From: Clostridia bacterium
Lineage (GTDB): Bacteria > Bacillota > Clostridia > Oscillospirales > CAG-382
Direction of reading: 5' to 3'
DNA length: 64,000 nucleotides
Assembly: GCA_017620655.1 (NCBI GenBank)
Contig: JAGAUT010000085.1
Coordinates: 939-64,938, forward strand
Below, in pieces: positions 2,391 through 62,541 of this stretch. The position numbers and the translations under genes are program-made. Positions within the stretch are counted from its first letter, which is position 1. Each line of letters begins with the position of its first letter. The notes below the pieces were generated by a model, which did no database searches, was not told where the DNA came from, and saw only the letters and a program-made list of their open reading frames with translations.

Positions 2391-2978
2391 CTATTTACTT
2401 GTGTTCGGGAAAACCTTTTCCCATTCGAGAACATTTCCTTTTAGATCTATTACAAATGCTTCTTTTGAAATCTTCGCAAGGGGCGCGTCGGATACGGAAT
2501 CGGAATAGAAATTATCAATCACGCCTTCGGGATAGGCTTCATAAAACCGTCTGACCTTTTCTTCGCCGTGGCAGTTTTCACCGTCATATTTACCCGTTTT
2601 TTTATCGACCTTACTCGCCATCATTTTTTCTACATTCAGTTTTTGGCAGATACCTTCGAGCAAAAATTCGGGGCTTGCAGAAATCACAACGTCGGTTTCC
2701 TTGTGTGTTTTTTTATACCAATCGAAAATTCCGTCGATATTCTTTTCCCAGAATTTTTCAACCGCAGCATCAACATCGGGAATGGCTGTCAGGAAGCGGT
2801 AGAATTTTTCTTTACACTGAGTCTTTGTGCCTTTTTTGAAGACATAGTATTTTGCAAAAGCACCTATCATAGACGGGATATGAAGCCATGTCTTTGGATA
2901 CTTCACAAGGCAGTATTTATAGAATTTTGCGGTGCTGTCACCATGGAATATTGTTTTATCAAAGTCAAAGACGTTCAT
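2391..2978 (-). CDS. HAD-superfamily (subfamily IB-like) hydrolase
   Basis: Trimmed to ATG 2978 with an AAGGAG RBS. MNVFDFDKTIF matches HAD motif I (DxDxT). The longer track ORF (to 3218) reads through repeat DNA. Confidence 0.7.
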   Translation of the reverse strand: MNVFDFDKTIFHGDSTAKFYKYCLVKYPKTWLHIPSMIGAFAKYYVFKKGTKTQCKEKFYRFLTAIPDVDAAVEKFWEKNIDGIFDWYKKTHKETDVVISASPEFLLEGICQKLNVEKMMASKVDKKTGKYDGENCHGEEKVRRFYEAYPEGVIDNFYSDSVSDAPLAKISKEAFVIDLKGNVLEWEKVFPNTSK

Positions 2979-2994
2979 AGAGGATGAGCTCCTT

Positions 2995-3425
2995 TTTTCT
3001 TTTTCGTTGGTTTTATAGAGTGCTAACGTTATGTAAAGGGAGTTCCGCACTCTGCGGAGTGCGTTTCCCGTCACTTTTCGTGACCGAAAAGTAACCAAAA
3101 GGTCCCGCTCAAAAGGAGAGATGGCTCGGTTGAGGTTATTTAGAGTACAAACCTGCTCGCCTTGACCACTGTAAGGGTCAAGGCTCAAATTCTGCCAAAC
3201 CCACCGCATTTTTCTCAACCTCCGCTGACCTCTCTCCTTCGCCGCGGCGGCTTACCTCTCACATTTGGTGTGGGTTCATGTTTGTGATGAGTTTGACCGC
3301 TTGCGTTTATGGCGGTCAAACGGAATTGCACTCGTGCAATTAACACCGATTAATATCCCAAAAGTGTTGGTGCTAAGTTCTTTCTTTTTTGCTTACTTTT
3401 TTCTTTTCGGAAAGAAAAAAGTAAG
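2995..3425 (-). repeat. mosaic block A: at least 6 hairpin modules incl. R-like (3073-3092), 3160-3183, 3291-3321, 3324-3341 and T hairpin 3392-3425
   Basis: Perfect 15-bp T hairpin CTTACTTTTTTCTTT/AAAGAAAAAAGTAAG. Other modules have homologues at 62436-62466 and 10275-10307. Confidence 0.75.
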
Positions 3426-5564
3426 TCAAAATCTCATTGTCAGAGAAATTCTCTTCTTTGCCGCATCGACTTCAAGGACTTTAACCTTGACGATATCACC
3501 GACGGAAAGAACTTCGCTGGGGTGTTTGATAAATTTGTTGCAAATCTGCGAGATGTGTACAAGACCGTCCTGATGTACGCCGATGTCAACAAACGCACCA
3601 AAGTCGATTACGTTTCTGACTGTACCCATGATTTCCATGCCGGGTGTAAGGTCGGAAATCTCCATGGCGGCACTTCTCATTATAGGTGCAGGCAGGTCGT
3701 CTCTGATATCTCTGCCCGGCTTTGCAAGTTCCTTTGCAATATCTATAAGTGTAGGAAGACCGACTGCACATTCTTCTGCCGCCTTTGCCTTGCCGTATTC
3801 TTCAAGTCGCTTTTCGATGTCGGCAAATTCCTTCGCCTTTTTGTCATAGCCGAGGATTTCTATAAGTTTCTTTGCCGCATCGTAGCTTTCGGGGTGTACG
3901 CCTGTGTTGTCAAAAACATTTTCGCTTTCGGGTACACGTAAAAAGCCTGCGCACTGTTCAAACGCCTTTTTGCCGAGCTTCGGCACTTTAAGAAGCTGTT
4001 TTCTGTCGGTATAAGAGCCGTTTTCTTCTCTGTAAGCTACAACATTCTGAGCCGTAGCAGAGTTGAGACCTGCCGCATATGAAAGAAGCGAGGGTGATGC
4101 GGTATTTACGTCAATACCAACCGAGTTTACACAGTCTTCTACCACGCCGTTTAAGGTTTCACCCAGCTTTTTCTGCGGCATATCGTGCTGATACTGACCG
4201 ACACCGATGCTCTTTGGGTCGATTTTTACAAGCTCTGCCATCGGGTCCTGAAGACGTCTTGCGATTGAAACAGCCGATCTTAGTGAAACGTCAAATTCGG
4301 GGAATTCCTTAGCCCCCAGTTCGGATGCAGAATATACCGAAGCACCTGCTTCGTTTACAACAATGTACTTTACATTTCCGCCGATTTCAGAAAGAAGCTC
4401 TGCAACAAAGTTTTCAGATTCACGGGATGCAGTGCCGTTACCTATGGAAATGTTTTCAATCTTATACTTTGAAATAAGGTTCTTTAAAACCTTCTTTGAT
4501 TCTTCAATTTTATTATGAGGCGGTGTGGGATAAATTACACCCGTATCAAGCACCTTTCCGTTACCGTCAACAACCGCAAGTTTACAGCCTGTTCTGTAGG
4601 CAGGGTCAAAACCGAGTGTAACCTTACCCTTGACAGGCGGCTGCATGATAAGAGGCTTTAAGTTGAGAGCAAAGTTCTTTATCGCACCGTCGGATGCAAA
4701 GTCAAAAAGATCATTTCTGATTTCTCTTTCAACCGAGGGGAATATGAGTCTGTCATATGCATCTTCGGCAGTTGCCGCAAGAAGCGAAAATGCCTTGGAC
4801 TTACCCGTGATAAGACGTGAGCAGATAATCTGAAGTGCATTTTCTCTGTTATATTCGATGCTCACTTTGAGGAATTCTTCGTTTTCACCTCTGTTCATGG
4901 CAAGAATCTGATGTCCCTGCACCTTCTTTATGGCAAAAGCGGCTTCGTAATAGTTTCTGTAAACCGAATCCTCTTCCTTTGCACCTCTTGAAATAATAGA
5001 TCCAAATTCGTTTATTGCCGCTTTGAGCATCTTTCGGATTTCGGCATCGTCCGAAACAATTTCAGCGATAATATCGCAGGCACCTGCAAGAGCATCTTCT
5101 GCCGTTTCAACGCCAAGGTCGCCATTTATATATTCTGCCGCAAGCTCCATGGGTTCCGGCATATCGGGACTTTGTGCAAGTAAGATTTCGGCAAGCGGTT
5201 CAAGCCCTTTTTCTTTTGCGATTGTAGCTCTTGTTCTTCTCTTTTGCTTATAGGGTCTATATAGGTCTTCAACCTCAGAAAGAGTCTTTGCGTTATCAAT
5301 GGCAAGGGCAAGTTCTTCTGTGAGTTTCCCCTGATTTTCAATGGAGTTTTTAACTTCTTCCATACGTGCCGAAAGATTCTGAAGATAGGTGAGTCTTTCT
5401 TCAAGCGTACGGAGTGTTGTATCGTCCATTGTGCCGTGCATTTCCTTACGGTATCTTGCAATAAACGGGATTGTGTTGCCGTCGGCAAGAAGGTCGATTA
5501 CATTCTGTATGTGATGCTCGGACTTTCCGAGTTCTTCCGATAAGATTTTTGCAAAACTTTCCAT
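3426..5564 (-). CDS. tex: Tex-like transcription accessory protein (YqgF/HhH/S1 domains)
   Basis: 712 aa. N-terminus NTIPFIARYRKE, and a C-terminal S1 domain (GTVRNVIDFGAFVDIG...GLVHISQ). Confidence 0.9.
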   Translation of the reverse strand: MESFAKILSEELGKSEHHIQNVIDLLADGNTIPFIARYRKEMHGTMDDTTLRTLEERLTYLQNLSARMEEVKNSIENQGKLTEELALAIDNAKTLSEVEDLYRPYKQKRRTRATIAKEKGLEPLAEILLAQSPDMPEPMELAAEYINGDLGVETAEDALAGACDIIAEIVSDDAEIRKMLKAAINEFGSIISRGAKEEDSVYRNYYEAAFAIKKVQGHQILAMNRGENEEFLKVSIEYNRENALQIICSRLITGKSKAFSLLAATAEDAYDRLIFPSVEREIRNDLFDFASDGAIKNFALNLKPLIMQPPVKGKVTLGFDPAYRTGCKLAVVDGNGKVLDTGVIYPTPPHNKIEESKKVLKNLISKYKIENISIGNGTASRESENFVAELLSEIGGNVKYIVVNEAGASVYSASELGAKEFPEFDVSLRSAVSIARRLQDPMAELVKIDPKSIGVGQYQHDMPQKKLGETLNGVVEDCVNSVGIDVNTASPSLLSYAAGLNSATAQNVVAYREENGSYTDRKQLLKVPKLGKKAFEQCAGFLRVPESENVFDNTGVHPESYDAAKKLIEILGYDKKAKEFADIEKRLEEYGKAKAAEECAVGLPTLIDIAKELAKPGRDIRDDLPAPIMRSAAMEISDLTPGMEIMGTVRNVIDFGAFVDIGVHQDGLVHISQICNKFIKHPSEVLSVGDIVKVKVLEVDAAKKRISLTMRF

Positions 5565-5643
5565 TTGTTTTCTCCTTTTGGCATTATGCTCTATACGGTA
5601 TTAATTATATCACAAAGTACCGCATACGTCAACTTCAAGATAC

Positions 5644-5670
5644 AAAAAACGCCCGAAAAGTCGGGCGTTT
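5644..5670 (-). terminator. intrinsic terminator after rpiB
   Basis: Hairpin CGCCCGA-AAAG-TCGGGCG flanked by A-run/T-run. Confidence 0.75.
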
Positions 5671-6608: not shown

Positions 6609-6825
6609 AATACGTTTCCTTTCCTGTTACTTTCTTAAGGAGAAAGTAACCAAAGACCTTTCAAGCCCAGCTCCTTTTCGCCAAACGCAAAAGTCCTTTG
6701 TTATATTCTCAATTGGAATTTGTTTTTGTATAGCACTTCTGGCAGTGCTGTTGCTCATTTTGCAAAGACTCCCCGAAATTCTTTCTTTTTTGCTTACTTT
6801 TTCTTTTCAGCAAAGAAAAAGTAAG
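6609..6825 (-). repeat. mosaic block B: R module (6626-6662) + T unit (~6715-6825)
   Basis: The R hairpin GTTACTTTCT/AGAAAGTAAC + CAAAGACCTTT matches 23801-23836 (reverse complement) over 23+11 nt. The T hairpin at 6793-6825 has a perfect 14-bp stem. Confidence 0.85.
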
Positions 6826-8019
6826 TTAATTCCTACCCAAAGGTGATATTTCACGGAGTCTGTTTACTACCTTTGTTACACACTCAACGATGTAATCAAC
6901 ATCAGCCTGTGTGGTTTCGTGGGAAAGTGTAAGTCTCAAAGAACCGTGTGCTATTTCATGGGGAAGCCCCATAGCAAGAAGCACATGTGAGGGTTCAAGC
7001 GACTTTGATGAACTAGCCGAGCCTGTTGATGCACAGATGCCCATCATGTCGAGCATAAGAAGCAGTGATTCGCCTTCGATATATTCAAATGTAAAGCTTG
7101 CAGTACCGGGAAGTCTCTTTGTGGGATGACCTGTAAGACGGGAGTTGGGAAGCTCGAGAAGACGTCTGATAAGGTCGTCTCTGAGAACAGCAAGGCGCGC
7201 ATTATCGTCCTGCATTTCTTCGTTTGCAATTTCGAGTGCCCTTGCCATACCGACAATACCGGGCATATTTTCAGTGCCGCCTCTTTTGCCCTTTTCCTGA
7301 CCGCCGCCCTCAATAAGAGCCTTACATACAACGCCGCTCTTGATATAAAGACCGCCCACGCCCTTGGGTGCACGGAACTTGTGTCCCGAAAAAGCAAGCA
7401 TATCAACGCCGAGATCGTGTGCGTTTACGGGAATATGACCTACAGCCTGTACCGCGTCTGTGAAAACAACAACCTTAGGATTCTTTTCCTTTACTCTCTT
7501 TGTGATTTCCTTAATAGGCTCAATTGTGCCGACTTCGTTATTTGCCATCATGATTGCAACAAGCGCCGTATCATCTCTCATTGCCGCCACAACATCATCG
7601 GGATTTACGGTTGCATTTTCGTCAACACCCACATATGTTACATCAATACCCTTCTTTTCAAGAGCCTTACATGTATGCATTACTGCGTGATGCTCAACCT
7701 TTGATGTTATAATATGGCATTTATCTGTCTTATTTCTTTCAAGATAGTTCTGAACTGCACCCTTGATAGCCCAGTTGTCGGACTCAGAACCGCAACCTGT
7801 AAAATATATTTCTTTGGCGTCGCATCCGAGAACGGAAGCAACCTTTTCTCTTGCCGAGTCAATATACTGCTTTGCCTCTCTTCCCTTCTGATGAAGGCTG
7901 GAGGGGTTGCCCGATACTTCGCCGAGAAGCGGAAGCATTGCCGCAAGCACCTTGGGATGCACCGAGGTTGTCGCCGCATTGTCGGCATATACAAATTTCT
8001 TATCGTGATCGTGAGACAT
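6826..8019 (-). CDS. nifS: class-V aminotransferase-fold cysteine desulfurase homologue (NifS/IscS type) with non-canonical active-site loop
   Basis: 397 aa. PLP lysine motif FSGHKF and C-terminal LEPSHVLLAMGL..EIAHGSLRL are present. The loop reads GICASTGSASSS instead of SSGSAC(T/S)S. Confidence 0.8.
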   Translation of the reverse strand: MSHDHDKKFVYADNAATTSVHPKVLAAMLPLLGEVSGNPSSLHQKGREAKQYIDSAREKVASVLGCDAKEIYFTGCGSESDNWAIKGAVQNYLERNKTDKCHIITSKVEHHAVMHTCKALEKKGIDVTYVGVDENATVNPDDVVAAMRDDTALVAIMMANNEVGTIEPIKEITKRVKEKNPKVVVFTDAVQAVGHIPVNAHDLGVDMLAFSGHKFRAPKGVGGLYIKSGVVCKALIEGGGQEKGKRGGTENMPGIVGMARALEIANEEMQDDNARLAVLRDDLIRRLLELPNSRLTGHPTKRLPGTASFTFEYIEGESLLLMLDMMGICASTGSASSSKSLEPSHVLLAMGLPHEIAHGSLRLTLSHETTQADVDYIVECVTKVVNRLREISPLGRN

Positions 8020-10321: not shown

Positions 10322-10559
10322 TACTAATCGGGATTGTTTTTTGCATTGCACTTCGGGCAGTATGGTTTGTTTTTTATCCTTAAATACCCCGAAGCTCTTT
10401 TCTTCTTGCTTACTTCTTCTTTTTCGTAAAGAAGTATTCTTTTAATTGGTATTTAGCTTTGCATGGCACTTCGGGCAGTACTGTTAGAATTATATCTCAG
10501 ATTCCCCGAAGTTCTTTTCTTCTTGCTTACTTCTTCTTTTCCGTAAAAGAAGAAGTAAG
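10322..10559 (-). repeat. two tandem ~118-bp T units
   Basis: CTTCGGG at 10351 and 10469, and CTTACTTC at 10409 and 10526, give a 117-118 bp period. The terminal hairpin at 10526-10559 has a perfect 15-bp stem. Same family as 6715-6825. Confidence 0.85.
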
Positions 10560-11279
10560 TTAAAACGGTATACTGTTATTATATCTTGTGGGAAGTCCGC
10601 TTTCATAGATATGAGAATCATTTGAAAGTGTCAGCATTTTTGGGAAAACAACATTATCTTTTTCCACGGCAAAGTCGATTACCGTCATGCTTGAATGGCA
10701 CATTGTAAAGTGGGTAGAATAAATCGGGTAAGGAACATCGAGAAGTGCACTCAAAAATGCGGTGCCGAAGCCTTCGTGGGCAAAGAGTGCAACCCTGTCA
10801 TTGTTTGGATTTTCTGCAATATAGTAACCCTTTTCCCTGTCGTGTCTGTAGCCGAGAGAAAGCATAAATGCATCCGCTTCCCTCTCGATTCTGAGAGTTC
10901 CTTCCTTGATTCTTGTGTTTTTGAATGCCTCATGGTCGTACCAGTTTATGCCCATAGCTCTTAATTCTTGGGACATAAGAAGCTTTTTGATGTGAGTATG
11001 CTGATAGCACCAGGTATAGAAGTTTTCGTCGTTGGGCATGGAAAAATCCTGCCATGCATACTGCTCGTTACACCAGTCAAGAATTTCAATTTCCTTCTTT
11101 AAAAGCTCTGCTGTGGGTTTGGCAGTAAGCATTGCACGGTTGGAGCTTGATGCATAAATCTTATCAAGTCCGTATCTTGCAAGTCTGTATTTTATCGCCT
11201 CTGCCTGCTCAAGTCCGAGTGGTGTTAAGCTGTCGGGGTTATATATGGGGTCTCCGTGTCTTATGTAGAAAAATAACAT
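10560..11279 (-). CDS. histidine phosphatase (phosphoglycerate-mutase-like) family protein
   Basis: 239 aa with the catalytic RHG motif at the N-terminus (FYIRHGDP) and a later HEGF motif. Confidence 0.75.
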   Translation of the reverse strand: MLFFYIRHGDPIYNPDSLTPLGLEQAEAIKYRLARYGLDKIYASSSNRAMLTAKPTAELLKKEIEILDWCNEQYAWQDFSMPNDENFYTWCYQHTHIKKLLMSQELRAMGINWYDHEAFKNTRIKEGTLRIEREADAFMLSLGYRHDREKGYYIAENPNNDRVALFAHEGFGTAFLSALLDVPYPIYSTHFTMCHSSMTVIDFAVEKDNVVFPKMLTLSNDSHIYESGLPTRYNNSIPF

Positions 11280-11305
11280 TTTGTGCCTCCTGTTTTACAA
11301 ACGCA

Positions 11306-11418
11306 ACAATCCCTCAGTCGCTTTGCGACAGCTCCCTTTACACAAGGGAGCCATATTTACAGACAAGCCCTCCTTGTGTAAAGGAGGGTGTCATCCGCAT
11401 GGGTGACGGGAGGATTGT
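11306..11418. repeat. P-family inverted pair (MITE-like, ~113 bp)
   Basis: Arms 11306-11352 and 11367-11418 are reverse-complement versions of one unit: ACAATCCCTC box, variable hairpin, then CTCCCTTTACACAAGGGAG hairpin. Confidence 0.85.
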
Positions 11419-18962: not shown

Positions 18963-19155
18963 ATGTTTCACCTCCCAAAAATAAAAAATGCCCTTTTCGA
19001 CCATAGAAAAAGGACAATGTAGGGAGAATATAAATACAAAATATCACTATTCTCATTAAATTACATCTTCCTCGACAGGCGAACCGTTGCCAACGGCTCA
19101 TTATAGTCTCTGACGGCACTTCTGCGCCGTCCGACCACCTGTTTTCTTCGGTCAA
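18963..19155 (-). promoter_or_regulatory. long rplJ 5' leader, candidate L10-leader autoregulatory RNA
   Basis: About 190 nt between the predicted promoter and the rplJ ATG, with several stems (e.g. CCGTTGGCAACGG). The position matches the Firmicutes L10 leader. The structure was not modelled. Confidence 0.45.
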
Positions 19156-19162
19156 CATGAGC

Positions 19163-19191
19163 ATATTACCACAAACAATTACGTTTGTCAA
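19163..19191 (-). promoter_or_regulatory. SigA-type promoter upstream of rplJ
   Basis: TTGACA (19191-19186), a 17-nt spacer, then TAATAT (19168-19163) on the minus strand. Confidence 0.5.
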
Positions 19192-21880: not shown

Positions 21881-22741
21881 ATGTTCAAAAGAAACGAAAA
21901 GAACGGCGTTTGTTTTTACACAAGTCCCACACTTGAAAAGTACGGCATAGTCCACGGCTTTTTTACCCGACACGGCGGTGTAAGCGGCGGCGATTTTGAT
22001 TCCCTCAACGTAAGTACGGCAAGAAAAGACAGAAGCGGAAGCCTTGACAATCAAAAAAACGTACTCGAAAACTACCGTATTGCCCTCTCGGCTCTCGGCA
22101 CTGTTCCCGAAAAAGCAGTCGGTGCAAAGCAGGTGCATGAAAACACGGTTTTAAGGGTGACAGACGAAGATTGTGCAAGAGGCATAAACCCGAGTCTTGC
22201 CGAATTATCCGGCTGTGACGGGTTGTTTCTTGACGGCTCGGCAAGAAAAATCGATGCTCTTTGCGTCAAGACCGCCGACTGTGTACCCATACTGCTTTCA
22301 TCAAAAGACGGAAAGGAAGTTTCTGCCGTTCATGCAGGCTGGCGCGGAACTGTCGCCGACATTGTAACAAAAGCGGCGGAAAGATTCACCTGTAAAAAAG
22401 AGGACATACTCTGTGCGATAGGACCTTGTATCGGCGTTTGCTGTTACGAGGTAGGCGAAGAAGTATATGAAGCTGTAAAAAGGTTATTTGCTTTCAAGGG
22501 CATTGAGGACAGGACAGACAGCATGTTCAGAAATGTCTGCTCCTGCTCGGCAAATACCAAGAAAAAAGCCAATCTTTCAGAGATAAACAGACAGCTTCTT
22601 ATTAACTTCGGCATACCCGAAGAAAACATTGATGTGTCGGAAATCTGCACGGCATGCCACGAGGATGAATTTTTCTCCCACAGAGCAAGCGGCGGATTTT
22701 CGGGGACTTTTCCATCAATCATCAAGCAGAATTCTAATTAA
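21881..22741 (+). CDS. pgeF: YfiH/PgeF (DUF152) purine-nucleoside phosphorylase / peptidoglycan editing factor family
   Basis: 286 aa with HGFFTRHGGVS, KTADCVPILL and HAGWRGT motifs. Confidence 0.85.
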   Translation: MFKRNEKNGVCFYTSPTLEKYGIVHGFFTRHGGVSGGDFDSLNVSTARKDRSGSLDNQKNVLENYRIALSALGTVPEKAVGAKQVHENTVLRVTDEDCARGINPSLAELSGCDGLFLDGSARKIDALCVKTADCVPILLSSKDGKEVSAVHAGWRGTVADIVTKAAERFTCKKEDILCAIGPCIGVCCYEVGEEVYEAVKRLFAFKGIEDRTDSMFRNVCSCSANTKKKANLSEINRQLLINFGIPEENIDVSEICTACHEDEFFSHRASGGFSGTFPSIIKQNSN

Positions 22742-22743
22742 AC

Positions 22744-22874
22744 GGCTCCCTTGTGCAAAGGGAGCTGGCAGCGTTAGCTGACTGAGGGATTGTCGCCAAA
22801 CTTCAAATTACAATCCCTCCGATTTTCGTCACGAATTATGTGACGAAAACCACCTCCCTTTACACAAGGGAGGC
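22744..22874. repeat. P-family pair (box-to-box orientation)
   Basis: Units 22744-22793 (reverse) and 22810-22874 (forward) share the boxes GAGGGATTGT / ACAATCCCTCC and the hairpin CCTCCCTTTACACAAGGGAGG. Confidence 0.85.
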
Positions 22875-22903
22875 TTACAAGATAAACTCAAAAGGATATT
22901 TCA

Positions 22904-23800: not shown

Positions 23801-23957
23801 AAAGGTCTTTGCTTACTTTCTCCTTAAGAAAGTAAGGACAATCCCTCCGAGTTTTGCCAAGCAAAACCCACCTCCCTTTACACAAGGGAGGCATAGTTTC
23901 GAAAAAGCCCGCCTTGTGCAAAGGAGGGTGTCAGTCGAAGACTGACGGGAGGATTGT
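23801..23957. repeat. R module (23801-23836) followed by P-family inverted pair (23838-23892, 23907-23957)
   Basis: AAAGGTCTTTG + hairpin CTTACTTTCT/AGAAAGTAAG, then two P units with variable hairpins at 23851-23867 and 23930-23946. Confidence 0.85.
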
Positions 23958-23982: not shown

Positions 23983-24888
23983 ATGAACATTATAAATTCA
24001 ATCTACATATTACTTGCAGGCATATTCTGGGGAAGCATGGGACTTTTTGTCCATGTGCTTACAGACACATTCGGATTTTCTTCAATACAGGGTGCTGTAC
24101 TCAGAATCACAAGCTGTGCTTTGATTCTCTTTGTTTTTCTACTTGTATACAACAAAAAACTTTTAAAAATCAGCGTACGTGACATTCCGATACTTGCCCT
24201 GAACGGTCTTATAAGCGTGTTGCTTATGACGGTATTTTACTTCAGTTCCATAAGCAGCGACACGTCCATGTCAATTTCCGCCGTACTTCTTTATACGGCA
24301 CCGTTTATAGTAATGTTTCTTTCGTGTATTTTCTTTAAGGAAAAGATTACATTTCAAAAGATAGTTGCGCTTATTATTGCCTTTGCCGGCTGCTGTCTTG
24401 TATCACTCACAGAACCCGGATATTCTACGCCTTCGGGCATCATTCTCGCTCTTTTGTCGGCGGTTGCATATGCCCTTTACAGCATATTCGGAAGCATGGC
24501 TCTTAAAAGGAATCTTGAGCCTTTTACGGTTACTTTTTACTCTTTCTTGTTTGCATCTTTGGGCTGTATCGTCATCTTCTTTGTTACAGATATGCCGAAA
24601 AAGATATCCGGAGTTGAAAACCTGCCTGTGTTTGCCCTTGCCGTTTTTGCAACGGGTCTTATTACGGCAGTCCTTCCCTTCGTACTTTACACAAAAGGTC
24701 TTTCGGGAACAAGCCCGGCAAAAGCATCCATAATGGCATACATAGAGCCCATTTCTGCCTGCGTCTTCGGCTATTTCAGAGGTGAAAGCATGACTGCACT
24801 TATGATTTTGGGCATTTGTCTGACACTTGCTTCAATTGTATTCCTCAACATAAAAATACCGCATCTTTCGGGTAAGGACAAGCAATGA
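23983..24888 (+). CDS. EamA/DMT-superfamily transporter
   Basis: 301 aa with about 10 TM segments in two internally repeated halves. Confidence 0.75.
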   Translation: MNIINSIYILLAGIFWGSMGLFVHVLTDTFGFSSIQGAVLRITSCALILFVFLLVYNKKLLKISVRDIPILALNGLISVLLMTVFYFSSISSDTSMSISAVLLYTAPFIVMFLSCIFFKEKITFQKIVALIIAFAGCCLVSLTEPGYSTPSGIILALLSAVAYALYSIFGSMALKRNLEPFTVTFYSFLFASLGCIVIFFVTDMPKKISGVENLPVFALAVFATGLITAVLPFVLYTKGLSGTSPAKASIMAYIEPISACVFGYFRGESMTALMILGICLTLASIVFLNIKIPHLSGKDKQ

Positions 24889-25839: not shown

Positions 25840-26622
25840 TTATTGAGCTTTGAAATGTGTGCCGACATCTTTACCCTCAAGCAAATCATAAAGCTTTTCG
25901 GGCTTATTGCCGATGGTGACATACATATCAATGCCACGGTCTGTTACATACTTTGCCGCTTCAAGCTTTGTTGCCATGCCGCCGGTACCGCGGTTTGAGC
26001 CTGCGCCGTTGGCAAGGGATATGATGCTATCGTCTATCTTTTCGACCTTATGTATAAGCTTTGCATTTGGATTTGTTCTGGGGTTATCGTCGTAAAGTCC
26101 CTCGATATCAGACATGATTATGAGCTTATCTGCCTCAACAAGTCCTGCAACTATTGCCGACAAAGTATCATTGTCACCAAACACCTTCTTAGGCGATTCA
26201 ATCTGATGGTGGCTTACCGAGTCGTTTTCATTTACTATCGGGATAATGCCGTTCTCAAGCAGTGCCGAAAAGGTGTTTTTGAGATTATTTCTTCTATAAT
26301 CCGATTCTATATCTTCCTCGGTAAGAAGAATCTGAGCTACCATGTTACCGTATTCCGAAAAGAGCTTATCGTACATATGCATAAGCTCACACTGACCGAC
26401 AGCCGCCGCAGCCTGCTTCATTTTCATATCTTTAGGTCGCTCGTTAAGTCTCATTTTATTGACACCTACCGAAATTGCACCCGACGAAACGAGTACAACC
26501 TCGAACCCTGAATTTCTCAGATCCGAAAGCACCTGACAGAGTTTATCAAGCGTCTTTATATCCACCGAGCCGTTTTCATGTGTGAGCGTCGATGTGCCGA
26601 CTTTTACTACTATTTTTTGCAT
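25840..26622 (-). CDS. proB: glutamate 5-kinase (short form, no PUA domain)
   Basis: 260 aa with VVKVGTSTLT and a GTGGMATKLEAA-type motif. Confidence 0.9.
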   Translation of the reverse strand: MQKIVVKVGTSTLTHENGSVDIKTLDKLCQVLSDLRNSGFEVVLVSSGAISVGVNKMRLNERPKDMKMKQAAAAVGQCELMHMYDKLFSEYGNMVAQILLTEEDIESDYRRNNLKNTFSALLENGIIPIVNENDSVSHHQIESPKKVFGDNDTLSAIVAGLVEADKLIIMSDIEGLYDDNPRTNPNAKLIHKVEKIDDSIISLANGAGSNRGTGGMATKLEAAKYVTDRGIDMYVTIGNKPEKLYDLLEGKDVGTHFKAQ

Positions 26623-26769
26623 TTTTATTCCCTACTTTCTTGGAAGAAAGTAGGCAAAGAACTTTTCATTTGGCTACTTTCTACAATTGGTTTAGCCGTT
26701 ATATTATTTTCTCGATTGGTGTTTCATTTTGATGCCGATAAGGCAGGCATCAAAATGAGTGCTGAAAAA
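26623..26769 (-). repeat. mosaic block G: R module (26631-26666) + conserved-loop hairpin (26725-26757)
   Basis: CCTACTTTCT/AGAAAGTAGG + CAAAGAACTTTT. The 12-bp hairpin CATTTTGATGCC/GGCATCAAAATG has flank CTCGATTGGTGTTTC, shared with 62371-62417. Confidence 0.8.
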
Positions 26770-53435: not shown

Positions 53436-53578
53436 ATAAAAAATACCGCACACAATATCGGTGCGGTACATACGCTTTTCTTCAAGCTAATCTCCCTACG
53501 CCGGTATTATCCGAACAGGTTTAAAGGGTTCGAAGCCACTGCTTCATCTCAGCCGTTTTTCAACAGCACCCCTGATAT
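53436..53578 (-). promoter_or_regulatory. TPP (THI-box) riboswitch with terminator expression platform
   Basis: Minus-strand reading gives GGGGTGCTG...GGCTGAGATGAAG...AACCCTTTAAACCTGTTCGGATAATACCGGCGTAGGGAG, the conserved TPP core. It is followed by hairpin TACCGCAC/GTGCGGTA (53444-53468) plus a U-tract, 18 nt before the thiT ATG. Confidence 0.9.
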
Positions 53579-53599
53579 TGTATTTTGCGGTTCGGGAGT

Positions 53600-60114: not shown

Positions 60115-60742
60115 TAAACATTTCGGAATTATAAGGATTTGGGACAAAATTCATGTCAGCGTTTTCTCCTTTTTTGCCCTTGTATGTTTCATTTCGGCTC
60201 AGGGGTTTATATATTCCTCGCTTTTTCTGTCATGCACTCTGCTTCATGAACTGTCGCACATTTTGTTTATGTACCTGTTTGGTGTAAAAATCTCAAAAAT
60301 TACCGTCTATCCCTTCGGCATTGACATTTCCGCCGACACTTCCCGTATCTCCTACAAAAAAGAACTCATCATCACCCTTGCCGGCAGTGCTTCAAATCTC
60401 ATCTTTGCCTTTATCGGTTGTGTTTTTCTTCAAAAGCACCCCTCTCCGCCGCTCTTGTTCTTTGTCATGTGCAACCTGTTTCTCGGCTGTATGAATCTCA
60501 TTCCCCTGTCTTTTTTTGACGGCGGTAAGGCTATTCGTCTTATTCTTTACGATTGTCTTGATATAGACAGAGCCTTTTACATTCACAAAGGACTAGACAT
60601 ATTCTCGGCATTGATTTTTATATGCTTTTCTGTTTTTTTAATGGCAGGCTCAAGCTTCAATTTGTCCGTAATTTGCGTTGTTGTTTACGCATCACTTTCA
60701 ACCTTTGCTTTATATATTAAAATTCCCTGTCGCAAGCCTTAA
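60107..60742 (+). CDS. M50-family site-2 protease (SpoIVFB-like)
   Basis: 211 aa with an HELSH zinc motif in a TM helix and a later NLIPLSFFDGG motif. Confidence 0.7.
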   Translation: MINKHFGIIRIWDKIHVSVFSFFALVCFISAQGFIYSSLFLSCTLLHELSHILFMYLFGVKISKITVYPFGIDISADTSRISYKKELIITLAGSASNLIFAFIGCVFLQKHPSPPLLFFVMCNLFLGCMNLIPLSFFDGGKAIRLILYDCLDIDRAFYIHKGLDIFSALIFICFSVFLMAGSSFNLSVICVVVYASLSTFALYIKIPCRKP

Positions 60743-60932
60743 TGCGACAGGGAATGGTTTGTTACGCGAATTATTCAGTTTGTTAATGACAAAAACCGCC
60801 CGCGATGTTTGCCGCGGTGCTTCACCGCACCTGTCGCAAGCCTTAATGCGACAGGGAATGGTTTGTTGCGCGAATTATTCAGTTTGTTAATTGCAAAAAC
60901 TGCCCGCTATGTTTGCCGCAGTGCTTCACCGC
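60726..60932 (+). repeat. family-X element, two direct tandem copies (104-nt period, ~93% identical)
   Basis: CCTGTCGCAAGCCTTAATGCGACAGGGAATGGTTTGTT... begins at 60726 and again at 60830. About 7 mismatches counted by eye. Confidence 0.9.
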
Positions 60933-61573
60933 TTTATAATCTTTACCTTTTCGCCATTCTTTAAACCGCAGGCATTTGCATCGTCTGTATCAATGTGCAT
61001 TTCAACATTGAAGTCGTCTCTTACTCTTACCTGAACATCAAAGAACTTTGTGGGCTTGATGCTTTCAACAAGTACGTCTACATAGTCGCCGTCCTTGATG
61101 CCGTTCTTCTGCGCATACTCAGGCGTAAGGTGGATATGGCGGTTGGCAATAATTACGCCTTCCTTGAGATAAACAGACCCCTTAGGACCAACAAGCACGA
61201 GCTTTTCACTGCCCTTGATGTCACCCGAAGGTCTTACAGGCGGACTTACCTTGAGCACAAACGTGTCTGTTCTTGAGATTTCAACCTGTGTGTTCTTTCT
61301 TACAGGTCCGAGTACTCTTACACCTTCAATAGCTCTGAGTGAAGGACCTACGAGAGTTACAAGCTGGTCGGAAGCAAATTCACGTCCCATAAGTGTCTTC
61401 TTCTTGGTAAGCTCAAAGCCCTTGCCGAAAAGCGTGTCAAGGTCTTCTCTCGACAAATGAACGTGTCTTGCCGAAATACCAATCTTTATATCATTATCAT
61501 CGCCGCTTTCAGCCGCCTGCATCTGTTCTACAGCCTTTTTGACAGCCTCGGCGATTACCTTTTCATCATACAT
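60926..61573 (-). CDS. pduL: phosphate propanoyl/acyl-transferase PduL
   Basis: 215 aa with two PduL repeats (GISARHVHLS..; IIANRHIHLTP..). N-terminal amphipathic helix EKVIAEAVKKAVEQM. Confidence 0.85.
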   Translation of the reverse strand: MYDEKVIAEAVKKAVEQMQAAESGDDNDIKIGISARHVHLSREDLDTLFGKGFELTKKKTLMGREFASDQLVTLVGPSLRAIEGVRVLGPVRKNTQVEISRTDTFVLKVSPPVRPSGDIKGSEKLVLVGPKGSVYLKEGVIIANRHIHLTPEYAQKNGIKDGDYVDVLVESIKPTKFFDVQVRVRDDFNVEMHIDTDDANACGLKNGEKVKIIKR

Positions 61574-62270: not shown

Positions 62271-62541
62271 ATATCTTTTCCTTTCCCCCTACTTTTCTTT
62301 CGAAAAAAAGCAGGCAAAAGAACTCGCAATTAGCACCATTCTGTCGGATTCTAAAAACGATTATTCGCTGCTCGATTGGAGTTTCATTTTGCCGTCAATA
62401 AGGCAGACGGCAAAATGATTACAATTTTTTATTAAGTTTGTCTGCTTGCGTTTATGGCAGACAAACGATGTTGGTTGAGCGACACCCGAAGCCGAACTTT
62501 TCACAAGCATTTCCCGTGAATTGCCGGCGGAGGCTCTCCGC
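62271..62541 (-). repeat. mosaic block J: degenerate R module (62288-62325), conserved-loop hairpin (62385-62417), hairpin 62436-62466, partial X (62478-62541)
   Basis: Each module has a homologue elsewhere in the window (26631-26666, 26725-26757, 3291-3321, 41885-41930). Confidence 0.8.

Follow-up and report, generated by a model that had tools for sequence, protein, structure and literature searches.

Potential intrastrand triplex (PIT) elements, reportedly described by Hoyne and Maher, offer the closest counterpart to the repeat analysed here. Under the ITxF/PIT definition, such an element has three tracts on one strand, either pyrimidine (Y), purine (R) and reverse-Hoogsteen R (class II) or Hoogsteen Y, Y and R (class IV), with stems of 6-15 nt, loops of 1-6 nt and at most one mismatch. 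Bacterial intrastrand-triplex repeats have so far been studied mainly through one G/C-rich E. coli motif. The TMECO/BoxC repeats are intergenic, show no strand bias and occur in inverted pairs (Holder et al., 2015; PMC4666352). The E. coli motif has neither promoter nor terminator activity, marks unstable loci, and forms triplexes in vitro that are undetected in vivo; RNA permits pyrimidine-motif triplexes but not purine-motif ones (PMC4666352).

The repeat units described below, called T units, have bodies specific to an uncultured lineage of herbivore-gut Clostridia and a head that is found in many phyla. Among the bacterial intrastrand-triplex repeats, this head forms a new variant that is A/T-rich, carries a clamp and is spread widely across phyla. 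The reading that we favour, with confidence somewhat above even, is that T units are non-autonomous, REP/BoxC-like intergenic repeats whose A/T-rich intrastrand-triplex head folds in a way that aids their mobilisation.

The window analysed is a 64-kb metagenome scaffold (ENA ERZ28654464, scaffold_796) from a spore-forming, dockerin-bearing member of the Clostridia of the herbivore gut. T units lie past three of its minus-strand genes, encoding a histidine phosphatase (10560-11279, PF00300), nifS (6826-8019, Aminotran_5) and tex (3426-5564, Tex). The histidine phosphatase gene is followed by a tandem pair on the minus strand: unit A (10440-10559), a full unit proximal to the stop codon, and unit B (10322-10439), the internal member, which is 78% identical to unit A with a period of 117-118. 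Also on the minus strand, a unit downstream of nifS spans 6709-6825, and a head-only copy past tex spans 3369-3425; these boundaries refine two of the four copies that a preliminary description, made from the sequence alone, had located correctly. T units are only 66-84% identical among themselves, and a recent burst is therefore not indicated. Their hairpin is at one end only, and terminal inverted repeats are absent.

Read in the mRNA sense, unit A runs from a head hairpin through a purine tail and a second stem-loop to a ...CCAATTAA terminus. The head hairpin (10526-10559; CTTACTTCTTCTTTT ccgt AAAAGAAGAAGTAAG) has 15 perfect pairs around a loop of 4 and adjoins the TAA stop of the histidine phosphatase gene. 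That of the nifS unit (6793-6825; 14 perfect bp, loop 5) adjoins the nifS TAA stop, and that of the tex copy (3392-3425; 15 perfect bp, loop 4) the tex TGA stop. No other perfect hairpin in the 64 kb reaches 14 bp, and none of that size arose in 40 first-order Markov simulations. All three end one base before a minus-strand stop codon (10560, 6826 and 3426), an abutment that the preliminary description had reported and that recurs in relatives and in other taxa. The hairpin of unit B is cut down to 8 bp (TACTTCTT/AAGAAGTA; 10411-10418 paired with 10429-10436). Read from the sequence, the hairpin region keeps no reading frame across copies, since loop lengths vary among them.

In the mRNA sense of the three genes, the head module has the order 5'-CTTAC-(Y tract)-loop-(R tract)-GTAAG-C-(mirror R tract). 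Its hairpin is perfect and is closed by a 5-bp NYTAC/GTARN clamp, with the variants CTTAC/GTAAG, CCTAC/GTAGG and GTTAC/GTAAC. On the plus strand, the pyrimidine tract preceding each hairpin mirrors the pyrimidine arm of that hairpin and therefore matches the purine arm in parallel, which is the pyrimidine-motif third-strand rule; on the opposite, mRNA-like strand, tail and arm are both purine and run antiparallel, in line with the purine-motif rule. The plus strand of unit A accordingly reads TTTTCTTCTT-G-CTTAC-TTCTTCTTTT-ccgt-AAAAGAAGAA-GTAAG, where the third strand with its G linker (10515-10525) is a 10/10 mirror of the hairpin pyrimidine arm and matches the purine arm in parallel. The head of the nifS unit (6782-6825) consists of the third strand TTTCTTTTTT, a G linker and the hairpin, and the tex copy of GGTGCTAAG, a third strand with a 10/10 mirror, and the hairpin. 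The earlier remark that stems differ between copies yet remain paired was correct but understated, as the upstream pyrimidine tract covaries too.

Three further copies of the module lie in the window, all on the plus strand and pointing opposite to the T units. A GTTAC/GTAAC-clamped module (6626-6656, hairpin 6626-6650, mirror tail CAAAGA, 5/5) precedes the nifU start codon (6608) by 17 nt, its hairpin side turned toward that gene. A CTTAC/GTAAG-clamped module (23803-23836, hairpin 23812-23836), located 5' of a plus-strand gene beginning at 23983, has the upstream third strand TCTTTG (5/5 mirror), itself preceded by GGTGCTAAA. A CCTAC/GTAGG-clamped module (26631-26662, mirror tail CAAAGAAC, 6/6) has its hairpin (26631-26654) 8 nt from the start codon of a minus-strand gene (25840-26622). 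Each of the six perfect window copies has its mirror on exactly one side, at 10/10, 10/10, 7/9, 5/5, 5/5 and 6/6; tracts are 5-10 nt long, the first loop measures 2-5 nt and the second spacer (GTAAGC) 6 nt. All window copies are intergenic, their tracts follow the ITxF/PIT order, and the repeat is intergenic and multi-copy with no bias of strand or gene class, as that definition also specifies. By this definition, which is one of sequence, the head qualifies as an A/T-rich intrastrand-triplex element; one of its strands falls in class II and the complement in class IV. The symmetry of the tracts suggests that the triplex may form in the cell.

The nifU-upstream module can be followed into four related genomes (70-88% identity), where the clamps have changed while pairing and mirror are preserved. 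A strict scan, which required a perfect stem of 8 bp or more, detects it in three of the four; the exception is L246, where a copy with a variant clamp can be read from the sequence at the nifU site. The retention of this module resembles that of a conserved cis-element more than that of junk.

Beyond the head, each T unit folds as two domains in the minimum-free-energy structure, with z of about -5 on either strand; the computations allow Watson-Crick pairs only. A 13-nt tract separates the head hairpin, which is one domain, from the other, a second stem-loop that ACUUCGGG/CCCGAAGU closes. In unit A, the second stem-loop spans 10468-10512 and its closing pair is ACTTCGGG/CCCGAAGT, so that the long-range pairing proposed in the preliminary description is present in the computed fold. 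Over five related units, the second stem shows one compensatory C-G to U-A change and two wobble changes. A scan of genome contigs for the whole-unit pattern GCACTTCNGGCAGT...CCCCGAANNTCTTT gave 0 matches, which marks the full T unit as lineage-specific.

The head hairpin of the T units, with its A/T-rich stem followed by CAAGAAGAAAAG, is not itself a canonical terminator, as had been noted. A textbook intrinsic terminator of the histidine phosphatase transcript, with a 13-bp GC-rich stem followed by TTTTTGTGTTT, lies on the minus strand at 10307-10275, downstream of both units A and B, which places the tandem pair within the 3' UTR. A strong hairpin immediately past genes might still be taken for an unusual terminator, or for chance low-complexity sequence, yet either reading deserves next to no credence: a U tract is absent after the hairpin on both strands, the transcript has its canonical terminator further downstream and PIT elements lack terminator activity (PMC4666352), while hairpins of this size are missing from the simulations and the covariation statistics given below run contrary to chance.

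The head is not peculiar to the T family; its hairpin is one copy of a multi-phylum motif capable of a triple helix. A scan of metagenomes and species-representative genomes with the pattern CTTACTT-N(8-30)-AAGTAAGCAARRA, which forces only 7 bp of stem, returned at least 251 distinct matches, and among the matches listed 215 of 251 form perfect hairpins of 10-20 bp. Matches from viral contigs, a much smaller collection, form two groups: 15 have short stems of 7-9 bp, mostly around a long loop (12 have just the forced 7 bp), and 14 are perfect over 10-14 bp. Carriers among the matches listed include Burkholderia, Paraburkholderia, Zoogloea, Variovorax, Glaciecola and Pseudomonas, many Bacteroidota, Oscillospiraceae and other Clostridia, Campylobacterota, Patescibacteria, Melainabacteria, Dehalococcoidia, Leptospiraceae and Nostoc, and the module is found in prophages too. 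Literature queries with sequence strings retrieved only primers and unrelated matches.

In every group found by the scan, hairpin and third strand covary. Among the matches listed, the tail is the mirror of the purine arm at 429 of 430 positions where A or G could be chosen (permutation, 71%); at unconstrained positions, the mirror holds for 67.5%, while 1000 permutations averaged 44% and never exceeded 49%. Of 158 asymmetric tracts among these matches, 84 fit the mirror better than the best of seven direct alignments, 74 tie and none fits it worse. No polymerase-based copying is known to produce mirror repeats. That a hairpin and a mirror tract covary through hundreds of variants would be accounted for by a single physical model, an intrastrand triple helix.

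In GC-rich taxa, the hairpin loop pairs with sequence past the tail, giving an H-type pseudoknot in which loop 1 runs parallel to the purine strand. Together with the copies that lie 8-17 nt from start codons at nifU and 26631, this pairing could point to a cis-regulatory RNA, a triple-helix pseudoknot whose copies before start codons, in the pyrimidine orientation, would control downstream translation and whose copies past stop codons would be by-products. Such a reading is improbable, as the neighbours share no gene class, both orientations are about equally frequent, and tandem arrays, inverted pairs and hundreds of copies per genome are unlike a riboswitch-like regulator. Rfam searches at gathering and permissive thresholds also found no family match over the window units or 20 motif loci.

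Comparison with the syntenic loci of three related MAGs, L245, L246 and L247, whose histidine phosphatases are 88%, 86% and 70% identical to that of the window, separates filled from empty sites. In all three relatives the histidine phosphatase stop codon is followed directly by a terminator, with a spacer of 8-10 nt and no units. The spacer between tex and the HAD gene is 13-14 nt in L246 and L247 against about 455 nt in the window, where it is a patchwork of the tex head, another hairpin family and a second head in the opposite orientation. The nifS unit has an orthologue in L245 and is absent from L246 and L247. Between its window and L245 copies, a T>C change in the pyrimidine arm is matched, at corresponding positions, by an A>G change in both the purine arm and the tail. 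In L246 a diverged T-like unit adjoins, without a gap, the stop codon of an upstream GH127 gene, and a different repeat family occupies the position downstream of GH127 in the window. Being missing from close relatives at two of the three sites, the units appear as insertions; they were inserted, or lost, within the time-scale of 86-88% protein identity. They begin exactly after native stop codons, upstream of the terminator, and have been duplicated in tandem, the internal copy losing part of its hairpin.

The filled and empty sites also bear on the suggestion that TTAA had been duplicated as a target. Unit A does have TTAA on both sides, but no other unit does; its right TTA is the native stop codon, which is present in relatives lacking the insertion, and its distal TTAA is part of a recurring unit end, CCAATTRA. 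A classical MITE that targets TTAA or TA and duplicates it draws some support from these flanks and from a TTAA in the empty L245 site. It is nonetheless very improbable: the nifS units of the window and of L245, unit B and the tex copy are without flanking duplication, no filled/empty comparison revealed a target duplication, terminal inverted repeats, expected of a MITE derived from a DDE transposase, are lacking in the T units, and no transposase is linked to them.

Behaviour typical of a multi-copy sequence is seen elsewhere. In gut metagenomes containing the window organism, the 50-nt head is covered 5-10 times as deeply as its flanks, and the contigs that contain it continue into many differing sequences. 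Tandem arrays with truncated internal hairpins occur at three other loci as well. One is in Porcipelethomonas ammoniilytica, which has arrays of 3 x 102 nt twice, after stop codons; in this species and in other Clostridia only the gene-proximal unit keeps the full hairpin, as in the pattern of unit B. In Paraburkholderia the head lies in both arms of an unannotated 690-bp palindromic element with at least 40 copies per replicon. At another locus, a 2.8-kb inverted pair flanks gabD with no transposase. All-against-all BLAST of ORFs, over 120 and then 240 loci, revealed no protein family recurring beside the motif, and no RAYT gene was seen in the window or beside any instance.

The position of the module relative to genes is more ordered than its direction. 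A single orientation relative to transcription, as first proposed, holds for the T-family units but not for the three other window copies, nor for the 215 listed instances, where flanking ORFs are co-directional in 76 and divergent in 62, with no bias. The hairpin side, on the other hand, faces the adjacent ORF in all six window copies, and among the listed instances it is that side, not the third strand, that is closer to an ORF in 80 of 122 (p = 7e-4), as would suit a hairpin placed at the terminus of the element. By local GC skew, orientation relative to replication shows a weak trend (48/77, p = 0.04 uncorrected), which carries no weight in the interpretation.

For ORFs of at least 80 codons, the stop lies at offset 0 from CTTAC in 9 of the 215 listed instances, compared with about 0.5 stops at each of the other offsets from 1 to 60 nt. 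T-type units start at a stop codon in 5 of 5 cases in the lineage of the window, and four prophage copies do so. At three loci the host ORF reads into the element, which supplies the stop codon. Three tRNA ends adjoin the motif, at offsets 0, 0 and -1 (a 1-nt overlap); two are 3' CCA ends co-directional with the motif and one is a 5' end on the opposite strand. The base preceding CTTAC is A in 52% of the listed instances, and there is no fixed target.

These positions would suit a module acting at the RNA level. In that case, the hairpin would be selected for capping processed mRNAs. After the stop codon it would block 3'-to-5' exonucleases; in the opposite orientation, before a ribosome-binding site, it would protect or regulate the 5' end, and the pyrimidine strand could there form a U.A-U RNA triple helix. 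Endonucleases would enter at the single-stranded tail that lies beyond the hairpin, and mobility would be secondary. Window hairpins lie 0 nt from three stops and 8 and 17 nt from two starts, the excess at offset 0 and the abutting tRNA ends fit the same scheme, the nifU 5' module has kept its pairing and mirror in four genomes, and the units are inside the transcript, ahead of its terminator. RNA-library assembler contigs, moreover, contain the head, although these reveal neither strand nor transcript ends, and the bodies of units A and B are covered at depth 0. We consider this explanation rather unlikely, while taking it seriously. The mirror tail would have no role in a plain stem-loop barrier, and a purine-motif triplex is impossible in RNA of the 3'-UTR orientation (PMC4666352). 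An exonuclease block does not need a clamp conserved across phyla, relatives manage without units at the same genes, and flanking-ORF orientation is unbiased overall.

A REP-like repeat acting at the DNA level is instead favoured by the equal orientations, the multi-copy state, the polymorphism between relatives and the many different bodies to which the head is joined. Under this reading, the hairpin or triplex would fold on transiently single-stranded DNA, and copying or mobilisation of the unit would depend on that fold. The enzyme responsible, presumably acting in trans, would be encoded away from the repeat, as RAYT is for REPs. The same fold might also promote slippage and hence tandem duplication. 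A unit in a 3' UTR would be co-transcribed, its stop-proximal hairpin acting as a stable stem-loop that may stabilise the RNA, with any effect on the message being secondary. In the 3'-UTR orientation the RNA would form the hairpin only, because purine-motif triplexes do not form in RNA, and copies before start codons could form a U.A-U triplex. Against a DNA-level repeat stand the failure to find a mobilising enzyme and the absence, in T units, of a target duplication and a terminal inverted repeat.

Reading frame is visible to the ribosome alone, and so a selfish element acting at the DNA level is not enough to explain why the units adjoin in-frame stop codons exactly. Three candidate explanations can be named. 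Selection within very short stop-to-terminator spacers may combine with a preference for insertion after A; a residual spacer may have been deleted, with the hairpin promoting its loss; or there may be a real requirement at the RNA level.

The preliminary interpretation is thus partly supported, having overlooked the third-strand role of the pyrimidine tract and the wide spread of the motif. Tentatively, and with clearly less confidence than for the REP/BoxC-like nature of the T units, the NYTAC-clamped hairpin and its mirror may constitute a single, unrecognised multi-phylum triple-helix family in which the fold itself is selected. If so, the fold could be the recognition structure of a trans-acting system that mobilises single-stranded DNA or, alternatively, a general gene-end module set flush to stop codons, tRNA ends and ribosome-binding sites. 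The variable tracts let the triple-helix rule be read from covariation in hundreds of natural variants across phyla, which is stronger comparative evidence for a three-stranded fold than a motif of fixed sequence can give. Abutment to stop codons and tRNA ends leads to testable hypotheses on how the element spreads and how it affects neighbouring transcripts, and Porcipelethomonas and Paraburkholderia provide cultivable carriers.

Some known elements were considered and set aside. The ends of IS66-type elements (GTAAGC...) fail as a match, as the flanks of the Burkholderia element are reverse complements rather than direct repeats and its inverted repeat reaches well past GTAAGC. Integron attC sites and group IIC intron targets have core sites that do not fit, and the neighbours here are housekeeping genes.

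Among RNA structures, triple-helix 3'-end elements of the MALAT1/PAN ENE type and the triple-helix H-type pseudoknots of SAM-II, preQ1-II and telomerase RNA share with the pyrimidine orientation of the head a U-rich strand in the major groove of a U-A-rich helix, a feature that is predicted for the head. They are not related to it in sequence or family, the head has no Rfam match, and the 3'-UTR copies of the head are in the orientation incapable of an RNA triplex. The BOX, RUP, ERIC, Correia and bcr families, stem-loop MITE-like repeats of Gram-positive and Gram-negative bacteria, resemble T units in being about 100-170 bp long, folded, co-transcribed and variable in presence between strains. 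T units, however, lack terminal inverted repeats and target duplication, and their conserved part is a triplex-type head common to several phyla. IS200/IS605 elements have subterminal hairpins at both ends and insert 3' of a fixed tetra- or pentanucleotide, whereas T units have one hairpin end; the absent target duplication of T units is compatible with that family.

The likeness to REP/BIME sequences goes further. Both are short, structured, extragenic repeats, often just past stop codons and within transcripts, in tandem and inverted arrangements, and both combine a short conserved head with a variable palindrome (GTAG in REPs, GTAAG or GTAGG in the head module). Mobilisation in trans, which we only infer for T units, and possible stabilisation of the upstream mRNA would be further shared properties. 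The REP head GTAG, however, is unpaired and lies 5' of an imperfect palindrome in the REP/RAYT system, while GTAAG (GTAGG, GTAAC) is paired with CTTAC and forms the 3' foot of a perfect palindrome; REPs also have no third-strand mirror tract. The gene for their RAYT (TnpA_REP), a Y1 transposase, is often flanked by REPs.

With the PIT, TMECO and BoxC elements, the head module shares Y, R and mirror-R tracts on one strand with short loops (class II; class IV on the complement). Like them, it is strictly intergenic and multi-copy without strand bias, sometimes occurs in inverted pairs, and varies in locus between close relatives with no linked transposase. Its sequence family is unmentioned in PMC4666352. 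The E. coli-type elements are built on a fixed G/C-rich GGGNGAGGG, and the head module on variable A/T-rich tracts. Its second "loop" is a conserved GTAAGC, the first five bases of which pair with CTTAC to form the 5-bp clamp. In contrast to PIT elements, finally, the head module is spread much more widely among phyla, is fused to lineage-specific bodies of 60-600 nt and, in Clostridia, frequently abuts stop codons exactly.

Immediately downstream of nifS (6826-8019, minus strand), the window carries a T unit, the post-stop repeat of about 118 nt. At the same place in L246, a syntenic locus of a related MAG, the nifS stop codon is followed directly by a member of a third hairpin family, TTTGACCGC...GCGGTCAAA (L246 14121-14160), which is also present in the window at 3281-3322 and 62426-62467. 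Close relatives thus carry different repeat families at one and the same site after a stop codon. The spacer between tex and the HAD gene (window about 2970-3425) spans about 455 nt, as compared to 13-14 nt in L246 and L247, and is made up of several repeat modules, including a second head in the opposite orientation, CCTTTTG-GTTAC-TTTTCG...CGAAAAGTGAC. The TTG at 3218, mechanically assigned as the start of the HAD ORF, is probably not the true start; about 245 nt further into the ORF comes the conserved HAD start, MNVFDFDKTIF.

A second repeat family (11305-11394, 22740-22877 and 23864-23940) is composed of paired hairpins, CTCCCTTTACACAAGGGAG / CCCTCCTTGTGTAAAGGAGGG, bracketed by ACAATCCCTCC...GGGAGGATTGT. 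Three genes in the window have it in their 5' regions, and its start directly abuts the GH127 stop codon. Word depth at 11305-11352 climbs to about 95-930x in the three metatranscriptome runs, and a fourth run, whose type is not recorded, gives 171x; the neighboring gene has a depth of about 2-6x. A search of Rfam with this family returned zero matches; the family is a candidate for an abundant structured leader or small RNA.

Other repeats and RNA elements are scattered along the window. Two 103-nt tandem units, 94% identical and each containing the hairpin CCCTGTCGCAAGCCTTAATGCGACAGGG, lie at 60726-60932, and the end of this pair adjoins the 3' end of a minus-strand ORF (60926-61573). A two-copy repeat (26702-26758 and 62362-62418; 79% identity) forms a long hairpin, CATTTTGATGCC...GGCATCAAAATG. 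Two known RNA classes lie on the minus strand. One, at 53476-53583, is a TPP riboswitch scoring 76 bits; the other, at 18974-19169, is a ribosomal protein L10 leader, whose 44.2 bits barely exceed the gathering score.

The head, a perfect hairpin clamped by CTTAC/GTAAG or a variant of it and accompanied by a mirror tract, occupies diverse positions in other genomes and metagenomes. In L185 (3820-4260), where a tRNA-Tyr and a tRNA-Gly gene stand one after the other, a copy directly follows the encoded CCA of each. At three loci, the element supplies the stop codon of a host ORF: in L104 (9571-9613, reverse strand) and L168 (4097-4139), a tandem duplication of the 5' arm and loop (13-15 nt) creates the TGA that terminates the ORF, and in L235 (about 5600-5665), a 246-codon ORF traverses the hairpin and stops at the TAA within GTAAG. 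Finally, the head, whose sequence symmetry is that of an intrastrand triplex, sits inside the arms of a palindromic element of about 690 bp (L134 5610-6300). This element, which carries no annotation in its replicons, has nearly invariant arms of about 85 nt and recurs in Paraburkholderia, Caballeronia and Ralstonia (e.g., AP028202.1), at no fewer than 40 copies per replicon.
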